From positions 1 through 29,865 of the IMG/VR virus record IMGVR_UViG_3300021958_000018: a stretch of DNA of 29,865 bases; one strand, 5' to 3'. The stretch's first letter is position 1, and every line of letters begins with the position of its first letter. Source of the stretch: a virus. A model generated the notes under the pieces. The model was not told the origin of the DNA, did no database searches, and saw only the letters and a list, made by a program, of their open reading frames with translations. The translations under genes were made by a program, and so were the position numbers. Below, piece after piece: positions 4,591 through 29,515 of this stretch.

Positions 4591-5025
4591 TCACTCTTCG
4601 TCGAGGTCTATGATCGGCGGCGCTATCTGTGCCATGCTCTGACTGACTTGCTCTGCTTCTTGTAGTAGTTGTGTAACGCTCATATTCTCAGGCGTGATTG
4701 CAATCTGTACTTGTGGCTCATCACGTTGCCCCCAGCCGCTCTTTTTCTCAAGCCACCACTGAGCAGCGCGCACGTCTCCCTCTTTCACTGCTCTGTGTAC
4801 GATTCCCATTGCCATAATGTCAGGACGTGCCTCAGCCTGTCGAAATTCCAAAACAAAATCATGATAGATCCCCTTGTTCGCTTGCTCGCCTCGTTTGATC
4901 CAGTTCATAAGCGTGACTAAAGTTATCCCTGCATGTTTGGCGGCTAGAGACTTCGAACCACCCACAGAGATCACTTGCAAGACTTCGCGCCGTGCTTTGT
5001 CAGTCAGTTTGCTTTTCCTGCCCAT
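4591..5025 (-). CDS. HTH protein resembling terminase small subunits (144 aa).
   Basis: The N-terminal GRKSKLTDKARREVLQVISVGGSKSLAAKHAGITLVTLMNWIKRG and a later AAQWWLEKK pattern resemble TerS-type proteins as I recall them. The gene is not adjacent to terL. Confidence 0.5.
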   Translation of the reverse strand: MGRKSKLTDKARREVLQVISVGGSKSLAAKHAGITLVTLMNWIKRGEQANKGIYHDFVLEFRQAEARPDIMAMGIVHRAVKEGDVRAAQWWLEKKSGWGQRDEPQVQIAITPENMSVTQLLQEAEQVSQSMAQIAPPIIDLDEE

Positions 5026-6667
5026 TGAGCACCTCTTGTATTCTTTCTGCTTTTGCCCAGTTCACACGCCCCTGTATGATTGGATAATAGTCTTCAGTCA
5101 TCTCACAACCTACAGCATTGAAGCCCTCAAGGATTGCACTTACAGCCGTTGTGCCACTGCCTAGAAACGGATCGAGCACTGTGCCGCCTTGTGGAGTCAG
5201 CAAGCGACAAAGCCAGCGCATTAACTTGATCGGCTTTACAGTTGGATGAAAGTTTTTAACGTGTTCAGCAGTGCGACCTGCGCCCGCTCTTGGGGATTTC
5301 AAGCCGTCCGATCCCTCTTTGCGTTGTGTTGCTTCTGCGCCTGTCTTGCCTGTCAAATGATCAAGCCCTGCCTCTTTCTCTGATCGTTGTGGCTTCTTGC
5401 ATTGATAGACGTTTGCAGGCCAGCGCCCATGCTTTGGATCATAAAAATATTCGTTTCTTAATGTTCCATCAGAAAAGCCCGAGACTGCATGCCCTCGACT
5501 TTGACTCGCTGATTTCTGCTCCGCTTTCAACTCGCTAGTATCTCCAAAATGACACTCATCCCCATAAGCAAAACGACCAGCATCTATATTGATCCCACCT
5601 GTACCCCATTTCAAGACATTCTCTGCAATACTTGAGCAGTCAGAATCTATTGGCTTTCTTGCAAGCACTGCGGGCTCTTGTGCTGGCTTGAGTGCAGTGC
5701 CCCAGCCTTGCCATTGTTGCGCTTGTGGGCTTGCGGGTGTTATTATATTGAAATCACCTGCATAAGTGCCAAAGACATTTTCTCCAATCTTGCCGCGATC
5801 TTTGCCGATCACTTTACGCTGATCAGATACTCCCAACTTTGAATCAATCGCTTTTGATATATCCAAACTTTTCGGAAATCCGCTTGTATATATCCAACTG
5901 ATCATGTCTCGAACTTCAAAGCCCGCTTCAGCAATAGCAACGCCCATCGGAAAGACAGTGCGAGATCCTGAAAATGCTACAAGATGCCCCCCGTGCTTCA
6001 ATACTCGCAAGCACTCTGACCACAGTTCGACAGAATACGCTATCCCTGTACTATCCCATGACTTGCCCATGAATCCGAGTTCATAGGGTGGATCGGTTAC
6101 GATTGAGTCTATGCTGTTGTCGGGTAACTCTTTCAGCATGTCGAGGCAGTTGCCCTTTAACAATCTGAAATCTAGATCAGATTCTACGTGCGGCGGTTCG
6201 ATTGCGTCTTGTGGCTCTCCGTCTCCAAATGGATTATCATCGTCTAGCCCGTCGAGCAGATCGTCAAGTTCGTGCTCTTCAAATCCTAGCACGCTCAAAT
6301 CTTCGCCTTGTTCTTTCAATCCAGTAAGAAGTTGAGACAGTTGATCAGTATTCCAGTCGGCTTTTTCTCCCAGTTTGTTATCGGCAATCATGAGCAACTC
6401 AGCATCCACAGGCGATAAATCAACATAGACAACGGGCACAGTTTCAAGCCCAATCTTTTGCGCTGCTTTGAATCTCGTATGACCTGCAAGGATCGTCCCG
6501 TCCTTATTGGCAATGATCGGGCTAGTGAATCCGAATCTTTTGATACTGTTCGCAATGCCATCAACTGCATGATCGTTGTGTCTTGGATTCTTGTGGTGAG
6601 GATGCAACTTGCCGATCCGCACAAACTCGCCCACTTTCTGCTCTTCTGTTGCTTCTTTGTCTGTCAT
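5000..6667 (-). CDS. ParB-like N-terminal domain fused to a beta-class N6-adenine/N4-cytosine DNA methyltransferase (555 aa).
   Basis: ParB-type KNPRHNDHAVDGIANSIKRFGFTSPII...GHTRFKAA. Catalytic SIVTDPPYE (DPPY). C-terminal AdoMet motif VLDPFLGSGTT. Confidence 0.9.
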   Translation of the reverse strand: MTDKEATEEQKVGEFVRIGKLHPHHKNPRHNDHAVDGIANSIKRFGFTSPIIANKDGTILAGHTRFKAAQKIGLETVPVVYVDLSPVDAELLMIADNKLGEKADWNTDQLSQLLTGLKEQGEDLSVLGFEEHELDDLLDGLDDDNPFGDGEPQDAIEPPHVESDLDFRLLKGNCLDMLKELPDNSIDSIVTDPPYELGFMGKSWDSTGIAYSVELWSECLRVLKHGGHLVAFSGSRTVFPMGVAIAEAGFEVRDMISWIYTSGFPKSLDISKAIDSKLGVSDQRKVIGKDRGKIGENVFGTYAGDFNIITPASPQAQQWQGWGTALKPAQEPAVLARKPIDSDCSSIAENVLKWGTGGINIDAGRFAYGDECHFGDTSELKAEQKSASQSRGHAVSGFSDGTLRNEYFYDPKHGRWPANVYQCKKPQRSEKEAGLDHLTGKTGAEATQRKEGSDGLKSPRAGAGRTAEHVKNFHPTVKPIKLMRWLCRLLTPQGGTVLDPFLGSGTTAVSAILEGFNAVGCEMTEDYYPIIQGRVNWAKAERIQEVLNGQEKQTD

Positions 6668-7151: not shown

Positions 7152-7180
7152 ACTATATAGAACTATTGTATCACTGTCAA
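7152..7180 (-). promoter_or_regulatory. Sigma70-type promoter for the RHH-RHH-methyltransferase-TerS-like operon.
   Basis: Minus strand reads TTGACA (7180..7175)-N17-TATAGT (7157..7152). The palindrome begins immediately downstream of the -10. Confidence 0.6.
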
Positions 7181-7992
7181 TCTATCAGATCGTCAATCAA
7201 TCCACTCTGTACAATCTTACGCCCTATCCATTCAGAGGCTTGCGGTACTATGGCATTTCCTAGTGCTTTCAATCGCTCTTTTCTGATTCTGTTGTGCTGG
7301 GTGCTGTCCATCCCTGTGGGAATCCCATCATCCACTCGACAAATCGCGGATTCAACACCAATCCCTCTCCAATCGCCTGCTCTTTTTCTATTCCATAGTG
7401 TTGGCATGCTTTGACGCCCACGCACATTCTCATATCTTTTATCTCCTCTCTCCTCCATTGACTCAGATACTTTGGTTCGCTTCCCGGCAGTCGCGCTGTT
7501 GGGGTAGGCAACACAAAACCAGCGCGCTCTGTGGTGCGGTGCTCCGAAATCTGATCCACTGCGTACAACTGTCCATTCACAATCATACCCGATTTCGGCA
7601 AGCGATCCAACAACATCGCATCCGCCCACTGAAAGGACATTTGCAACATTTTCCAAGCATACAATTCTTGGTCGAAGTTGGCTAATAATTCGGTGCATTT
7701 CCCACCAAAGACTCGATTTTTCACTGTCATGTATTCCCCTTTGTTTTCCTGCTACTGATATGTCTTGGCAAGGGAATCCCCCACACAAGAGATCGATTGG
7801 TTGTAGGTTGTGAGCGCCGACTGTACACACATCATCGAAGATCGTTGCCTCAGGCCAGTGCTTTTTCAAGATGCTTTGACAAAATGTATTCTGTTCAACT
7901 TGCCAAATTGCCTTACTGTTTGGAATGGCGCGCGAAAGCCCTAACTCGAACCCGCCGATCCCTGCGAAAAGTGATCCAATTTTTACTGTCAT
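7177..7992 (-). CDS. DNA (cytosine-5)-methyltransferase, short form (271 aa).
   Basis: Ordered motifs: I LFAGIGGF, IV GGFPCQDIS, VI CLENV, VIII GAPHHRARWF, X LGNAIVPQ. Confidence 0.85.
   Translation of the reverse strand: MTVKIGSLFAGIGGFELGLSRAIPNSKAIWQVEQNTFCQSILKKHWPEATIFDDVCTVGAHNLQPIDLLCGGFPCQDISVAGKQRGIHDSEKSSLWWEMHRIISQLRPRIVCLENVANVLSVGGCDVVGSLAEIGYDCEWTVVRSGSDFGAPHHRARWFCVAYPNSATAGKRTKVSESMEERGDKRYENVRGRQSMPTLWNRKRAGDWRGIGVESAICRVDDGIPTGMDSTQHNRIRKERLKALGNAIVPQASEWIGRKIVQSGLIDDLID
7269..7730 (-). CDS. Nested same-strand ORF in a shifted frame inside the C5-methyltransferase gene (153 codons). Coding status unresolved.
   Basis: The ORF is open for 153 codons. Its ATG is preceded by AAAGGGGA. 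The translation contains LPKSGMIVNGQLY, LPTPTA and LNPRFVEWMMGFPQGWT. Confidence 0.3.
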   Translation of the reverse strand: MTVKNRVFGGKCTELLANFDQELYAWKMLQMSFQWADAMLLDRLPKSGMIVNGQLYAVDQISEHRTTERAGFVLPTPTARLPGSEPKYLSQWRREEIKDMRMCVGVKACQHYGIEKEQAIGEGLVLNPRFVEWMMGFPQGWTAPSTTESEKSD

Positions 7993-24253: not shown

Positions 24254-25690
24254 TTACAGATTGAAGCCGAAAGCAACATTTTTAACGTCTGAAGCGTCAA
24301 GGCTATCGAAAGTCAAGCGCTCTGTAGCAACCATGTTGAAAGCGCCGCTCTTGATGTCTTGCTCTTGCTGGATTTGGATCCCGCGTCGTGCAAAGATGTT
24401 CCAAGAGTCGCGAGATACGCAAAGCATCCCAGTTGTTGCGCCTGTGCCAGTGTACAATCCAGTAGTAGCAAGATCGTCAGACATGAAACGAGATACAACG
24501 ATCGGCATCCCGAAGATCGATCCGATTTGTCCAGTCAAGATTGAGGCTTGAGGACCGAACTTGTCAAGAGTAATCACTTGCTCAAGTCCCAGCAAGTTCT
24601 CATACAATGCCTCAGGAGACACGATCAAAACTTTGTCAGAAGCAGCATACTCGCCCAACTTGCTGATCAATTCGAGCATCTTTGCAGCGTCGAAAGAGTT
24701 GATATCAAGAGTAGTGCTCTTGTCATAAGCAGCAGCACGCAATCCAGTCCACAAGCGGCGATGATCATTTGAGCCACCTAAGCCACTAGCGCCCCAGCGT
24801 TCGCGGATGTTCCAAGAGGCGATCGCATCTTGGTGAGTAGCAGCAGAATCACCATTGATCAAAGCATCTTCTACAGCGTCACGCATATCTTTTGCGATCA
24901 TGCGTTGCATTGCTGGCAACAACAAAACAGCAGAGTCTTCAATCAATTCTTCGTCAAGGATGTAACGAGTTGACAAGCCTTTTGCAGTGATCTGAGCCTG
25001 TCCCATTGATACAGTAGAAACTGGATACAAAGCAGGATTGTCGCTTGTTACAGTTCCTTTGATGTATGGACGCCCGCCGCGATTGATGCGAGGCGCAAGC
25101 ATTGTGTTTGAAGTCATTTGAACTTCAGAGAACAATGAACGCACTACAGTTGGAACTTGATATTCCATGTGCAACTGTGCCAAGAATTGATCTTCAATCA
25201 ATTCAGCACCAACGCCAGCACCGTCGAAGTTTGCTTTTGAAACTTGAGCAGCGATTGCACGAGGTGCAACAGCCAAATGTCGAGCAATAGCCAGATCCAT
25301 CTTTGGGGTGCTCTTGTCGCCCACAAGCATATTTTTGACCATCATGCGATCATTTGCAAGTCGCTTCATTTCGACATGCCAGTTAGAAAGATTCTCGTCA
25401 GTGTCGAGCAATCCAGCCTCTGTCACAATCTGAGTGCCTTGTGCAGTCTTGACTTTAGTCTTTCCAGCAGTCCAGCGGATCGATCCGTCTTCGCCTACAA
25501 ACTTTTTAAGTTCTGAATCTGTGCCAGTGATCTCGACAGAGTCAGCACGATAAACAGATTCTTCCATGAGTCTGTGGGCTTCTTTCAAAGACTTTACTTG
25601 TTGCTCGATGTTTGCAACTTTCTCGTCTTGGTTGTTTCTCAGGGAGCGTAATTCCCCCATGATTTGCTTTACTGCATCAATGTTTGACAT
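24254..25690 (-). CDS. Major capsid protein, HK97-like, with an N-terminal coiled-coil delta/scaffold region (478 aa).
   Basis: Position after the protease, an N-terminal heptad region, and the LDEELIEDSAV...AKDMRDAVEDALINGD pattern. Confidence 0.85.
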   Translation of the reverse strand: MSNIDAVKQIMGELRSLRNNQDEKVANIEQQVKSLKEAHRLMEESVYRADSVEITGTDSELKKFVGEDGSIRWTAGKTKVKTAQGTQIVTEAGLLDTDENLSNWHVEMKRLANDRMMVKNMLVGDKSTPKMDLAIARHLAVAPRAIAAQVSKANFDGAGVGAELIEDQFLAQLHMEYQVPTVVRSLFSEVQMTSNTMLAPRINRGGRPYIKGTVTSDNPALYPVSTVSMGQAQITAKGLSTRYILDEELIEDSAVLLLPAMQRMIAKDMRDAVEDALINGDSAATHQDAIASWNIRERWGASGLGGSNDHRRLWTGLRAAAYDKSTTLDINSFDAAKMLELISKLGEYAASDKVLIVSPEALYENLLGLEQVITLDKFGPQASILTGQIGSIFGMPIVVSRFMSDDLATTGLYTGTGATTGMLCVSRDSWNIFARRGIQIQQEQDIKSGAFNMVATERLTFDSLDASDVKNVAFGFNL

Positions 25691-25705: not shown

Positions 25706-26470
25706 CTATTGGTTAAAACTTTTCAATTCAGCAAGTAAGTCGGCAAGAGTAGCGCCCTTTTCTTCTTCGCTCTCTTCTTCGTCTTGCATTTTATCTTCTT
25801 CGTCATCGTGCTCGGCTTTTTCTTCTTCGTCATGCCCGCCCTTTTCTTCTTCGTCTTTGTAGCCCTCTTCGACTTCTTCGACTTCTTCCATTTCAGAATG
25901 GGCAGCAAACTCTACAAGATAATTGCCGTTTTCTAACTCTTGCACCGATACAATGTGCTTATTGATGATCAAGGATCTTGCAACGTCTGCAAGTCCGATC
26001 TCTCTTGTGAAATTCTTGCTCAAAGTAGCCTCGTTATTTGCGGGTATTGTTACGATAGAGATTTCTAGAAGTTCAGATTTGGCAAAGTACGATCCTGACT
26101 TTCCATAATAAGGATGATCAGCAGGCAAAGAACTACGAGCGATAGTTTTGCTGGGTTGGAATCCGACAGAAACAGCATTGATATAGCCGCCTCGCACTTT
26201 TTGCTCAATTGTTTTAGCCATTTCATCATTTTGATCAAACTCCACTTCCAGCATCAGTTGCTCATTTTCGACGTAGGCTTTGCCTTTGCCGATCGGCATC
26301 TGTGTAGGATTGTGATTGAATAGCACAACAGGGTTGCGATTGTATGCAGACAAATCCCAACCCTTTTGATCTACAATGTCGCCATATCTGTCAGGGTTGG
26401 CTGTAGACGCTACAAACTTGATCGGCTTGTCTTGTTCTATTTGCTTTGTTTGGAAACTCTTAAAACGCAT
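25706..26470 (-). CDS. Prohead serine protease (HK97/S78 family) with a polyacidic C-terminal extension (254 aa).
   Basis: FVASTANPDRYGDIV, VLFNHN and AVSVGF motifs. Start moved to the ATG at 26470, which is preceded by GAGGAG. Confidence 0.8.
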   Translation of the reverse strand: MRFKSFQTKQIEQDKPIKFVASTANPDRYGDIVDQKGWDLSAYNRNPVVLFNHNPTQMPIGKGKAYVENEQLMLEVEFDQNDEMAKTIEQKVRGGYINAVSVGFQPSKTIARSSLPADHPYYGKSGSYFAKSELLEISIVTIPANNEATLSKNFTREIGLADVARSLIINKHIVSVQELENGNYLVEFAAHSEMEEVEEVEEGYKDEEEKGGHDEEEKAEHDDEEDKMQDEEESEEEKGATLADLLAELKSFNQ

Positions 26471-26520
26471 TTGTGCTCCTCTCAGATATGATATAGCATA
26501 CAGGATCAACTGTCATGTGA

Positions 26521-26928
26521 TTATTTGCGCTCTCTGTATTTCTCGTAGCACTCTTCTTTGTTTTCAAGAAACGATTCACAATGATTGATAATGATCTTCG
26601 AGTTCGATACATTCGAGATTTCTTCGCATTCTGCGCCGCTTGTTTTCGCTTCTACACCGCGCTGCATAACTCGGCAATACATTTCCCTGCAAAGTAAATC
26701 CCCGTTTTCTTTGATGTATTCAGCGCTACAAGGTTCTACGAGCAGATCAAGATTTGTGAGTTGCTTGGCAACGTCTGACACAGGATCGACAGGCTCAATG
26801 ATGATCGGGGCAACTGGCTGGCTGGCTGGCTTGTCTTTTGTTATTGCCATTGTGCCCAAAGTTCCTACGGCAACGCCACAGATCGCAATCACTGCATAGA
26901 TAGTAAGCATATTATTTTCCTTTTGCAT
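26521..26928 (-). CDS. N-terminally membrane-anchored Cys-rich protein (135 aa).
   Basis: Hydrophobic LTIYAVIAICGVAVGTLGTMAI, a Pro-rich linker, and then 6 Cys in about 70 aa. Confidence 0.6.
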   Translation of the reverse strand: MQKENNMLTIYAVIAICGVAVGTLGTMAITKDKPASQPVAPIIIEPVDPVSDVAKQLTNLDLLVEPCSAEYIKENGDLLCREMYCRVMQRGVEAKTSGAECEEISNVSNSKIIINHCESFLENKEECYEKYRERK

Positions 26929-26932
26929 TGTG

Positions 26933-29449
26933 TTACTCTTCGACTATTGGCGCAATAGTACATCGACAGTTGATGTCCATTGAAGCCACGCCAAAAGAGG
27001 CGGGCGCTTGTGCTCTGTATCCGTCGATCTCAAACTGATCTGCAACTGGGATCGGCTCGGCATCGTCTAGGGCTGCATGTTCTTCTCTTACTTTATCGTC
27101 ACGGCTAGAGATCCACTCTTTGAGAACTTTGACATTTTCTTGCTCTTCAAATAGTTGATACGCCTCATTTGTTGCCGTGTTGATCGCCTTTGTGGTTTCT
27201 GTCTGTGCTATTCGTTGCGCTCTTTTTTCGCTGAAAGTTGTTGCTTGTCGGATGCTCTCTGAAATGTCGCGATTGCTCAACCCTTGTTCAATGCCAGCGC
27301 GCACTAGCCGCTTGATCTGCTTTTCGTTTGTGTTGTTGATCTGTCTTGCGAACTGCAATATTTGACGCTCCATTATTTTGCGCTCTCCAAACAACAGATC
27401 GATCGGTCGGCTTCTATTCGTCAAGTTGTACAGTTCCGTTACAGTGTCATTGCCTGTCAACATATAGACGGATCGAAATGCACGTCCGATCACTTTGCCG
27501 ATCTGCTCAATCTCAAGAGCACGCCCCAAGATCGTTGCGTAGTCAATCGCCTTGCTTTCTCGTTGATCAATGATTGCCTGTGCGAGTATTGCCGCCCGTC
27601 TTGAATAGCGATCGGCAGCATCCAGCAAATATATCTCTGTAGCGCGTTGCATTGTACGCTCAGCGGGCAATACACTCTTTTTAAGCCATTGCGCCCAGTA
27701 TACGTCCTTTTGCGCCTTTGTCATGCTTCTTTGTAGCGATCTCTTTTCTGTCAGTCGCTTCTTTTCGTCGCTGATCACTTTTCTCATGTGTGACAAGCCA
27801 CGCGATCCGACAACTAGCCATTTTATTTGAGCAACAACGCCAGCCAGTCTGAAATCTTTGAGGTGACGAGCCGCCCAAGCCTCTCGAAGCCTGATCGCTT
27901 TCTCTTCTGTCTCAGTTTCTGCAATGCTACTGCTACGCTCTGCAATGGGCTTGAGTCTGTTGTATTGTTTATTGCCGAGTACATTGCCACCGCGATCCCA
28001 TATCTCAGACCAGTTATCTTTGAGATCTTGTGCTTCGTCATGTGGGAATCGTTCAAATTGTGAATTTCTCAGCGCAACCTGTTGATCTTCGCCGTCTTCA
28101 GGGAAGTTTGTCGGATCTTTGTCGCCTACACTGCCCCGCATTTCGAGCGAGTCAATCTTTTTTTTTTCGTCCTCTTTGGCGCGTTGTACAAGTTGCGTCA
28201 ATGCTTGCTCTATTGCTTCGTCTTGCTGGCTGGCTGGCTCTTCTTTATCTGTTGATCCAAAAGGGGAATCCTTTAAGCCCTCATAAGCATATGCCTCTGA
28301 GGCGCTCATGCCCGATTCAATATGTATTCTGATTCTTTCAAGTTTCTCAGATCGAATAAACTGCAACGCGTCAACATTTGAAAAGTCAATCTGTACATAG
28401 AAAGCAGGATCGAACATTTGTGCAATACGGGTCATGAATTGCTCAAGTTTGCGCGCCCGCTTCTCTTGAATCTCCCAGTATGTGATCGTCGCCTGTCTTG
28501 CTGTTGCATAATTGGCATCAGGCAAGCCCAGCACAGTAGACGGCACGCCACAGACTGCACTGATGTTTTCTCGTACCATGATGCGCAATGATTGCATTTC
28601 GAGATCGCGCGGGGATAGGTTGAGCGTTTCAACTTTGATCTGTCCACTGAGCGCCATTGCGCCCCCGTGCTCTGTCATTTGTTTGTAGGCTTGCATGATC
28701 TCTTGTCTTCTACGTCGATCCCATATATCAGCGGGATCAATAGGCGACAAAAGAACGTCAGGGCGCCCTTGCTTGCTTACACTGCTTGCCATGCGTTGCG
28801 CGTTGATGTCGGCTGTAATCTCTTCGTTCAGTGCTTCAACAATGCCTGAGCCGTACAACTCGCCCGCGCTCTGATTGTCCCATGAGGCATTTCGAATATG
28901 TATGACACGCTCAGGCGCATAGACGACAGAAGATCCGCCGTCTGTGTATTCGTAGCCCTTGACCATTTTGACAGGATCTGGAATGATGCGCACGTTCTCA
29001 GGGTGCAATCTGTATAAACTTGTCGGCTTGTTGAGATCGCCTACAATCAAAGTATAGCAATTGCCCGTCATCATCAGATCGACGATAAACTGCTCTCTGA
29101 ATAAATAGCCGTCCGTAATGCTTGACGGTTGACGGAATAGATCAAGCACTTCGTGATCATCGATCTCTGTTTGCTGCTCCCCTTGCCCTCTCAGCAACTT
29201 GATCGGCAGGCTTGCAATGTCTTGACTGGCACGCGTTACACAGGCGTGTGTGTAAGCATGCTTGCCAAATACAGCCATAGATTGACGAGGGGAGAAAATA
29301 GGGGCAACGCCGTTGCCAGTGCTCCAAGATGCGCCGTGCTCAGGTGCTTCAGGATTCTCTTCAACTTGCCCAAAGGCTCTAGCAATAAAAGAGGGTACAT
29401 ATCGAGCCAGCCAGCCAGTTTTTGCGGGTACTTGTTTATTTTGTGGCAT
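26933..29449 (-). CDS. Portal protein fused to a Mu gpF / SPP1 gp7-like head morphogenesis domain (838 aa).
   Basis: The N-terminal half is portal-like. The C-terminus carries RIAQTETTKAINTATNEAY and WISSRDDKVREEHAALDD...NCRC. Start moved to the ATG at 29449, which is preceded by AGGAG (the track used a TTG at 29473). Confidence 0.85.
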   Translation of the reverse strand: MPQNKQVPAKTGWLARYVPSFIARAFGQVEENPEAPEHGASWSTGNGVAPIFSPRQSMAVFGKHAYTHACVTRASQDIASLPIKLLRGQGEQQTEIDDHEVLDLFRQPSSITDGYLFREQFIVDLMMTGNCYTLIVGDLNKPTSLYRLHPENVRIIPDPVKMVKGYEYTDGGSSVVYAPERVIHIRNASWDNQSAGELYGSGIVEALNEEITADINAQRMASSVSKQGRPDVLLSPIDPADIWDRRRRQEIMQAYKQMTEHGGAMALSGQIKVETLNLSPRDLEMQSLRIMVRENISAVCGVPSTVLGLPDANYATARQATITYWEIQEKRARKLEQFMTRIAQMFDPAFYVQIDFSNVDALQFIRSEKLERIRIHIESGMSASEAYAYEGLKDSPFGSTDKEEPASQQDEAIEQALTQLVQRAKEDEKKKIDSLEMRGSVGDKDPTNFPEDGEDQQVALRNSQFERFPHDEAQDLKDNWSEIWDRGGNVLGNKQYNRLKPIAERSSSIAETETEEKAIRLREAWAARHLKDFRLAGVVAQIKWLVVGSRGLSHMRKVISDEKKRLTEKRSLQRSMTKAQKDVYWAQWLKKSVLPAERTMQRATEIYLLDAADRYSRRAAILAQAIIDQRESKAIDYATILGRALEIEQIGKVIGRAFRSVYMLTGNDTVTELYNLTNRSRPIDLLFGERKIMERQILQFARQINNTNEKQIKRLVRAGIEQGLSNRDISESIRQATTFSEKRAQRIAQTETTKAINTATNEAYQLFEEQENVKVLKEWISSRDDKVREEHAALDDAEPIPVADQFEIDGYRAQAPASFGVASMDINCRCTIAPIVEE
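28157..28163 (-). other. Candidate -1 programmed frameshift heptamer A_AAA_AAG within an A10 run.
   Basis: The sense strand reads gag gac gaa aaa aaa aag att gac. The -1 frame reads GAT TGA immediately afterwards. Confidence 0.5.
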
Positions 29450-29515
29450 GTGATCTCCTGTCAATACTGGCAATATATCAGAAAATGAAGACTATTGACA
29501 CGGCGATCGATTTCT

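Follow-up and report, generated by a model that had tools for sequence, protein, structure and literature searches.

A conserved poly(A) run at the portal-MuF junction of an uncultured phage as a probable programmed slippage site

Why does a phage gene that joins a portal protein to a Mu F-like domain carry a long run of A between its two parts, and why does a stop codon in the -1 frame follow this run almost immediately? The question is raised by the IMG/VR virus record IMGVR_UViG_3300021958_000018, a genome of an uncultured phage. The stretch analysed here, referred to as the window, has 29,865 nucleotides (nt) and is essentially the whole contig (29,879 nt). A first-pass annotation, made from the letters of the window, had described a slippery run of ten A's (A10) in the linker of a portal-MuF fusion gene. 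It had proposed that ribosomal or transcriptional slippage at this run yields a portal-only protein besides the fusion. This proposal is supported by the conservation of the run in related phages, by six lineages in which the two halves of the gene lie in different frames, and by an enrichment of -1-frame stops directly after the run. Comparison of related sequences makes it very probable that the run functions in recoding. The A10 of the window is probably a programmed slippage site, by which one gene would give two virion proteins with a common N-terminus.

The gene and the elements of its junction are as follows:

26933..29473, minus strand: open reading frame (ORF) of the portal-linker-C-module (MuF) fusion, stop codon included (ORF list, Pfam and PHROG)
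28364..29248, minus strand: HK97-family portal domain, PF04860, residues 76-370 in the 846-residue numbering
28112..28258, minus strand: interdomain linker holding the A-run, residues 398-446 of the 838-residue protein (low model confidence)
26936..28111, minus strand: C-terminal module (C-module), residues 447-838 (Pfam, alignment and AlphaFold2)
26954..27322, minus strand: Mu F/SPP1 gp7-like domain at the end of the C-module (Pfam)
28158..28167, minus strand: A10 homopolymer, a slippage-prone tract, T10 on the plus strand (read from the sequence)
28157..28163, minus strand: A_AAA_AAG heptamer in the zero-frame register, at the 3' end of the A10 (read from the sequence)
28152..28154, minus strand: TGA, the -1-frame stop, one codon (GAT) past the run, which ends the 432-residue product
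28126..28128, minus strand: TAG, the +1-frame stop, 10 codons past the run, which terminates the protein of mRNAs that lack one A or have gained two
28171..28174, minus strand: GAGG, 7 nt 5' of the heptamer, present in the window, not conserved and probably no stimulator

The fusion ORF comprises 846 amino acids (aa) when it is read from the TTG at 29473, and 838 aa from the ATG at 29449. The identical 838-aa protein is present in the database (P0001). The portal part matches the Pfam family Phage_portal with 153.5 bits against a cut-off of 39.1 (1e-44), and residues 718-840 match Phage_Mu_F (PF04233) with 65.5 bits against a cut-off of 29.6 (9e-18). With both domains above the curated cut-offs, the annotated fusion of a portal with a Mu gpF/SPP1 gp7-like domain holds. 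PHROG 2662, 'portal protein', covers both halves. The C-module starts with a conserved helical region that contains the motif G-S-V-G-D-x-D-P-T-N-F-P. An AlphaFold2 model of the protein has a mean predicted local distance difference test score (pLDDT) of 80.5, and both the portal fold and the C-module (447-838) are modelled confidently. The score falls below 50 at residues 398-412 and 425-446, the latter including the three lysines (KKK) at 429-431, and the interdomain linker is probably flexible in view of this model.

The position of the run relative to the portal fold is also informative. A profile search of the PDB aligns stand-alone HK97-family portals of 393-431 aa, those of the gene transfer agent (GTA), HK97 and T5, to residues 66-365. 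A Foldseek comparison of the model with the GTA, HK97 and T5 portals gives E = 5e-14 and target TM-scores of 0.56-0.66. Because the run follows the full portal fold and the stand-alone portals have 393-431 aa, a product of 432 aa would be a complete portal.

At the junction itself, positions 28174..28151 of the minus strand read GAG GAC GAA AAA AAA AAG ATT GAC and encode E-D-E-K-K-K-I-D. This segment is preceded by GCC AAA and followed by TCG CTC GAA ATG CGG GGC, and the protein reads ...AKEDEKKKIDSLEMRG here. The codons across the run are GAA (28168-28166), AAA, AAA and AAG (28159-28157), so that the A10 with its A_AAA_AAG heptamer is in the zero-frame register, as had been annotated. After a -1 slip the next codons are GAT TGA, with the stop 3 nt past the run, and the product from the ATG at 29449 has 432 aa and ends in KKKD; the annotation was correct on this point as well. 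It had also placed the end of the +1 frame within 12 codons, and a TAG is found after 10, at a distance of 29 nt from the run.

The A10 is the sole homopolymer of at least 8 bases in the window. Runs of T in the window comprise 13 of length 6, none of length 7 to 9, and one of length 10. From composition, about 0.14-0.20 runs of at least 10 are expected in the window for T, and 0.01-0.05 for A. Taken without its relatives, the A10 is thus mildly unusual; it is suggestive and not decisive, and its weight comes from conservation.

More than 120 relatives are found in the database, and nearly all of them are portal-MuF fusions of 820-1,076 aa. The comparison set consists of 170 loci of relatives, taken from IMG/VR and from metagenomes. 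The junction was delimited by two anchors, one where the portal domain ends and one where the C-module starts (GSVGD-DPTNFP), which were located with two hidden Markov models (HMMs) built from alignment A1. These replaced regular-expression anchors (YEG..., TNFP), which missed about 45% of the loci. Both anchors are present in 140 loci, and these represent 105 distinct junctions, with aa identities down to about 40%.

An uninterrupted run of A9 to A13 lies in the linker between portal and C-module in 79 of the 105 distinct junctions. The first-pass annotation had named conservation of the heptamer in related fused portals as a check of its proposal, and the result agrees with it. Runs of at least 9 bases number 87 in 65.8 kb of linker sequence, compared with 15 A runs and one T9 in 597.5 kb of flanks, which is an enrichment of about 50-fold. 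The linker runs never consist of T, G or C, and the enrichment is confined to the sense strand. Their lengths are A7 (5 runs), A8 (7), A9 (35), A10 (47), A11 (4) and A13 (1). The rest of the same genes (237 kb) has A7 (33), A8 (17), A9 (1), A10 (3) and A11 (1). Pairs of loci with flank identities of 85% or more number 124, and in each of them both loci have the same run length; the comparison spans independent assemblies and uses consensus sequences.

The residues encoded over the run are variable and include EKKK, QKKN, MKKKI, QKKKL, SKKKD and PKKKI. The register of the run may be 0, 1 or 2, and its 3' base is G in 50, T in 25 and C in 12 of the 87 cases. Outside the linker, 55% of the lysine codons are AAA and 45% are AAG. 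The motif KKK is written in pure A in 78 of 95 cases inside the linker and in 5 of 31 cases outside it. As the bias to pure A is limited to the linker, selection acts on the nucleotide run and not on a lysine motif.

The place of the run is not the same in all relatives. In some lineages it stands at other interdomain positions, within an inserted domain of roughly 110 aa, or in the C-module at a distance of about 370 nt from its start. The inserted domain (ELAKIGNM...RSGKHDTDLLPKDHPM) stands between the portal and the A-run in many relatives (P0002, P0004, P0012 and others; L006-L009, L023, L030, L031); it has a weak Pfam match to DUF5824 and is absent from the window. In the lineages that have the run within this domain, it lies at an L-K-K-K-A-x-D-H motif. 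The runs in the C-module are A10 or A11 (L063 at 3948, L076 at 5443, L123 at 1455, L163 at 2492), and the equivalent sequence of the window is EKKRLTEK. Of these lineages, L076, L123 and L163 have no linker run and L063 has one. From these sequences, the slippery tract seems to shift from one interdomain position to another. Two A9/A10 runs in one linker are found in L107 (3218-3268, with A10s 31 nt apart), L058/L061, L129/L133, L135 and L137/L138. With paired runs of this kind, truncation at several points or slips that compensate each other would be possible. A second A10 within the conserved C-module occurs in L172 (4665-4674), a 28-kb contig binned in a Verrucomicrobiales metagenome-assembled genome (MAG), where the remainder is in the +1 frame. 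It reads NIKKKSS*, and an A9 would give NIKKNHPEIW like the relatives. Possible readings of this single case are an error, a mutation that slippage rescues, and a further programmed site. In L077, L082 and L159 (around 5000-5200 of L077) the portal ORF appears to stop just past the MuF NCRC motif. A separate gene for the 'TNFP' module (MITKQEITNFP) follows after a short spacer that contains an A8, which gives the same parts in a different domain order.

The sequence after the run indicates the direction of the slip. Of 76 in-frame runs, 45 have a -1-frame stop at most 5 nt away (59%; 28 of 56 distinct contexts), compared with 15% at random positions of the same genes. At a distance of up to 15 nt the values are 87% and 36%. 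For +1-frame stops within 5 nt, the values of 12% and 10% show no enrichment. Since stops are enriched in the -1 frame but not in the +1 frame, the -1 frame, which corresponds to one extra A in the mRNA, is the frame under selection. In the clade of the window, the codon after the run is ATT, AAT, AGT or ACT. Its third base is T throughout and the next codon is GAY (Y being C or T), and the TGA of the -1 frame is therefore preserved in this clade.

In 11 distinct junctions, the portal and the C-module lie in different frames. These junctions belong to six lineages (L038/45/47/130; L040/121; L046; L064/66/151; L067/68/69/72/152/156; L131). The offset is -1 in every case, and the interval in which the frame has to switch always holds an A9 or A10. 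The portal frame stops 6-32 nt past the run. In L046 a TAA made of the base before the run and the first two A's of the run closes the downstream frame, and the portal frame stops 27 nt past the run; this confines the shift to the run itself or to the bases that directly follow it. Wherever the locus extends to a stop, the downstream ORF has an open length of at least about 1,200 nt (L069 is cut by the end of its contig). Between diverged members, synonymous and non-synonymous codon differences in the downstream ORFs amount to 94:16, 76:11, 83:16, 85:15 and 45:15; comparisons of out-of-frame ORFs of unequal length were ignored, as these are misaligned by indels. By this measure, the downstream ORFs are under purifying selection. 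The out-of-frame lineages have diverged in 8-10% of their nucleotides and retain the run length. An in-frame ATG, GTG or TTG ahead of the conserved domain is absent in five of the six lineages. The exception is L064, which has an ATG 59 nt past the run, ahead of the HMM-detected start of the domain at 179 nt. Identical out-of-frame states recur in up to six independent assemblies. Assembly error and pseudogene formation were considered for these split lineages and rejected, given the reproducible states, the synonymous excess and the lack of a start before the domain in five of the six. The -1 offset, the purifying selection and the lack of an own start together indicate that translation of the C-module in these phages needs a -1-equivalent event at the run.

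These observations fit the following scheme for the window. Faithful expression would give the 838-aa portal-linker-MuF fusion, and a -1-equivalent slip would lead to the stop at GAT TGA and to a 432-aa portal of stand-alone size. The slip could happen in transcription, when the host RNA polymerase copies the T10 template and inserts a surplus A, or in translation, as a -1 shift of the ribosome on A_AAA_AAG. Loss of one A from the transcript would likewise lead to termination within 10 codons, and the C-module of the window would be made solely when the slip does not happen. The related out-of-frame phages would have the mirror arrangement, in which the templated product is the portal alone and a slip is needed for the fusion. 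The main route may well be transcriptional slippage by the host RNA polymerase, with ribosomal -1 shifting on the same run as a possible contributor. The assignment to the host enzyme follows from the lack of a phage RNA polymerase candidate: the window has no large candidate ORF, and none of the 10 large ORFs scanned matched, so the host enzyme would probably transcribe the portal gene. Bacteria select against A and T runs from 9 nt (Baranov et al., PMC1088944), and in dnaX of Thermus thermophilus (tau/gamma) transcriptional slippage at an A9 gives about 50% of the short product (PMC1088944). The step in the linker run lengths at 9 coincides with this selection threshold and with the length of the Thermus run, which supports transcriptional slippage. 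It is further favoured by the independence of the run from register and 3' base and by the lack of stimulators. A mainly transcriptional slip is, on these grounds, the reading towards which the data lean.

The rival that is hardest to set apart is a purely ribosomal -1 frameshift of the E. coli dnaX type, in which tRNA-Lys pairs slip on the A_AAA_AAG of a faithful A10 mRNA and then meet GAT TGA. The dnaX-type framing of the first-pass annotation stands as far as the heptamer, its register and the immediate -1 stop are concerned. The exact -1 shift required in 11 of 11 out-of-frame junctions, the enrichment of -1 stops without that of +1 stops, and G as the commonest 3' base (50 of 87) also speak for it. 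One relative (L007) has A AAA AAG AGT GAC, which matches the E. coli dnaX shift site. The E. coli site requires an upstream Shine-Dalgarno (SD)-like sequence and a strong downstream stem-loop. The annotated GAGG is indeed present 7 nt upstream of the heptamer (28174..28171), but it is not kept even in relatives at 83% identity, which have GAAGAC; others have GAAACTC and similar sequences. No SD-like element upstream of the run is conserved among the junctions of the relatives. The arms of the annotated stem CUCGC...GCGGG likewise exist, as CTCGC at 28151..28147 and GCGGG at 28139..28135 of the minus strand, but the 55 nt downstream of the run fold with -10.0 kcal/mol (z = +0.40 against dinucleotide shuffles), which is not significant. 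Folds over 58 distinct junctions, with 55 nt on each side, have a mean z of -0.46 downstream and +0.02 upstream, and thus point to no structure. An Rfam scan of the region found no frameshift element and gave chance-level snoRNA matches (E >3). The stimulatory elements of the dnaX type are therefore unsupported in this gene. In addition, linker runs shorter than 9 are rare (5 of A7 and 7 of A8, against 86 of A9-A11) even though the heptamer needs just 7 bases, and 37 of the 87 runs have T or C as their 3' base. A slip that is mainly ribosomal is accordingly considered unlikely.

The remaining explanations do without programmed slippage in expression, and they fare less well. The run might be a contingency locus for phase variation at the DNA level, where replication slippage alters its length and each genome encodes one of the two forms, fused or split. 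Runs as long as this are prone to mutation, and the lineages do differ, with A9, A10, A11 and A13 and with both in-frame and out-of-frame states. On the other hand, none of the 124 pairs with nearly identical flanks differs in run length, even though minority variants could escape consensus assemblies. The out-of-frame lineages keep both the run length and the signature of purifying selection over their divergence of 8-10%, and phase variation is quite improbable for these reasons. It is even less probable that there is no recoding, that the run merely reflects a flexible lysine-rich linker with A-rich codons, and that assembly errors or pseudogenes account for the split relatives. Linkers rich in lysine and glutamate are frequent, AAA is the slightly preferred lysine codon (55%), and a single A10 in 30 kb is just mildly improbable. 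Against this, codon bias in a lysine linker as the cause of the run is rejected by the KKK codon control (78/95 versus 5/31). The run persists while the residues change, and it reaches into Glu, Gln, Asn, Ile and Ser codons; the roughly 50-fold enrichment is strand-specific; and the split forms, identical in up to six independent assemblies, have downstream ORFs under purifying selection that lack a start before the conserved domain in five of six lineages. Finally, the T10 of the plus strand could be the U-tract of an intrinsic terminator directed against antisense transcription, as the complement of the short stem precedes it on that strand. A terminator scan finds no site at T10, however, and the stem consists of 5 pairs, one of them G-T, with a spacer of 8 nt to the T tract. 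The frame switches and the enrichment of -1 stops would also go unexplained. An antisense terminator is effectively refuted by the scan and the frame data.

Programmed slippage at the run, mainly in transcription, remains the preferred explanation, and several points weigh against it. The counts ignore phylogeny, and since the relatives are non-independent samples, the significance of the enrichment is overstated. The run is not universal: about 20 of the 105 junctions, mostly at no more than 45% identity, keep the fusion without an A run of at least 9. The first-pass annotation had regarded such relatives as evidence against slippage. They do occur, mostly among the distant members, beside the 79 junctions that carry the run. 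Every run of at least 9 contains an in-register A_AAA_AAN heptamer, and all offsets are -1, so that ribosomal shifting explains the same data. A host search in 185,579 genomes returned just phage-like contigs binned in MAGs (Puniceispirillales and Verrucomicrobiales bins). As the matches are solely of this kind, the host assignment is not trustworthy, and neither is an assumption on the slippage behaviour of its RNA polymerase. The rationale of a set ratio and a mixed dodecamer, which is given below, is speculative.

The portal is the unique 12-fold vertex of the capsid and the route of DNA entry and exit. In established structures its C-terminal crown faces the capsid interior, and the C-module of the fusion would therefore sit inside the head. 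The purpose of the slip may be to set the ratio of plain to MuF-carrying subunits in the ring of 12 subunits, with the result that only some of these would bring the internal head-protein module of about 45 kDa into the capsid. If this is true, it explains how a low-copy internal head protein is loaded without a separate gene in marine phages of about 30 kb. It also raises the structural question of how a dodecamer accommodates a subset of subunits with a 45-kDa extension. A more tentative idea, possible and rather less than probable, is that the tract acts as a tunable dial of stoichiometry, where its length (A9, A10 or A11), its frame state (with the fusion or the portal as the default) and its place among the interdomain linkers set a lineage-specific count of subunits with a covalently tethered MuF-type protein among the 12. 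Under such a dial, the symmetry of the portal vertex would be broken by recoding and not by a separate binding protein, and ejection or pilot proteins would be loaded in a manner undescribed for tailed phages. There are practical consequences as well. Gene callers will annotate the split lineages wrongly, as a truncated portal and an orphan ORF. The family also provides a natural series of A9, A10 and A11, both in-frame and out-of-frame, for the study of homopolymer slippage.

Other genes of the window include the large terminase (TerL; 1454-2926), an HK97-like major capsid protein (MCP; 24254-25690), DNA methyltransferases and tail genes. Between the portal-MuF and capsid genes lies an ORF of 135 aa (26521-26928, minus strand) with a hydrophobic N-terminal helix and a Cys-rich tail. 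The neighbouring protease-like ORF at 25706-26509 (minus strand) has a very acidic tail (EEVEEVEEGYKDEEEKGGHDEEEK...), and its label comes from position and sequence only. Two DNA methyltransferase genes lie on the minus strand at 5000-6667 and 7177-7992, and one of them is fused to a ParB-like nuclease domain according to PHROG. A megablast search with the portal-MuF gene gave no match in 50,697 phage records. The best tblastn match of portal-MuF among cultured phages has less than 30% identity with partial coverage, the matches of TerL and MCP are below 30% as well, and thus no close cultured relative was found. A 96-kb metagenomic contig (FUFK010041055.1; L107, L108 and L115) carries the gene three times at intervals of exactly 28,892 nt and is a concatemer assembled from a genome of about 28.9 kb. 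This spacing indicates that genomes of about 29-30 kb are complete, and it supports the window as a complete genome.

Among known systems, a close counterpart is dnaX of Thermus. Both genes have a sense-strand A run of at least 9 at a domain boundary within the coding region, and neither needs an RNA stimulator. The templated length gives the long product in both, and other lengths lead to a nearby stop and a shorter product with the same N-terminus. The Thermus gene is a cellular replicase gene with experimentally shown slippage and an A9, whereas the portal-MuF gene is a virion gene for which slippage is deduced; it has A10 in the window and A9-A13 in relatives, in which the frame state varies. 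With dnaX of E. coli, the gene shares the heptamer, its register, a stop one codon past the shift, and the combination of a long and a truncated product. It differs in that the SD-like element and the stem-loop are neither conserved nor significant. Shigella mxiE and insertion sequence (IS) elements represent the opposite case, where a slip is required for the long product (PMC1088944). The split lineages (L038, L040, L046, L064, L067 and L131 types) resemble these, as their overlapping ORFs are joined only via an extra base at the A9 or A10. In contrast to those regulatory and transposition genes, a structural gene is concerned here, and the window itself has the opposite, in-frame arrangement. 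By their sequences, both arrangements, one in which a slip truncates and one in which it fuses, are found within one phage family.

Frameshifts in structural genes of phages are known from the tail assembly chaperone G/GT, T7 10A/10B and the major head protein of phage A2 (PMC7302621, PMC10885494, PMC3711429). Like these, the portal-MuF gene would be a recoded late structural gene that yields two proteins with a common N-terminus at a fixed ratio, as far as can be deduced. Unlike it, they involve ribosomal shifts at heptamers, concern tail and capsid genes, and extend the protein. Single-gene fusions of a portal with a minor capsid protein of MuF-like type are present in Microbacterium phages of clusters EA3/5/8 and EB (PMC7302621). 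These are unrelated in sequence, and no slippage site or second product is reported for them (PMC7302621). In the searched literature portal-MuF fusions are described, and no description of a recoded portal gene was found. The available parts of the 2016 recoding review (PMC5009743), the GeneTack survey and the PRFect paper (PMC3711429, PMC10885494) do not contain the word 'portal'. The proposed event thus belongs to a known kind, programmed homopolymer slippage with two N-coterminal products, and, as far as the searched literature shows, the portal gene is a new setting for it.

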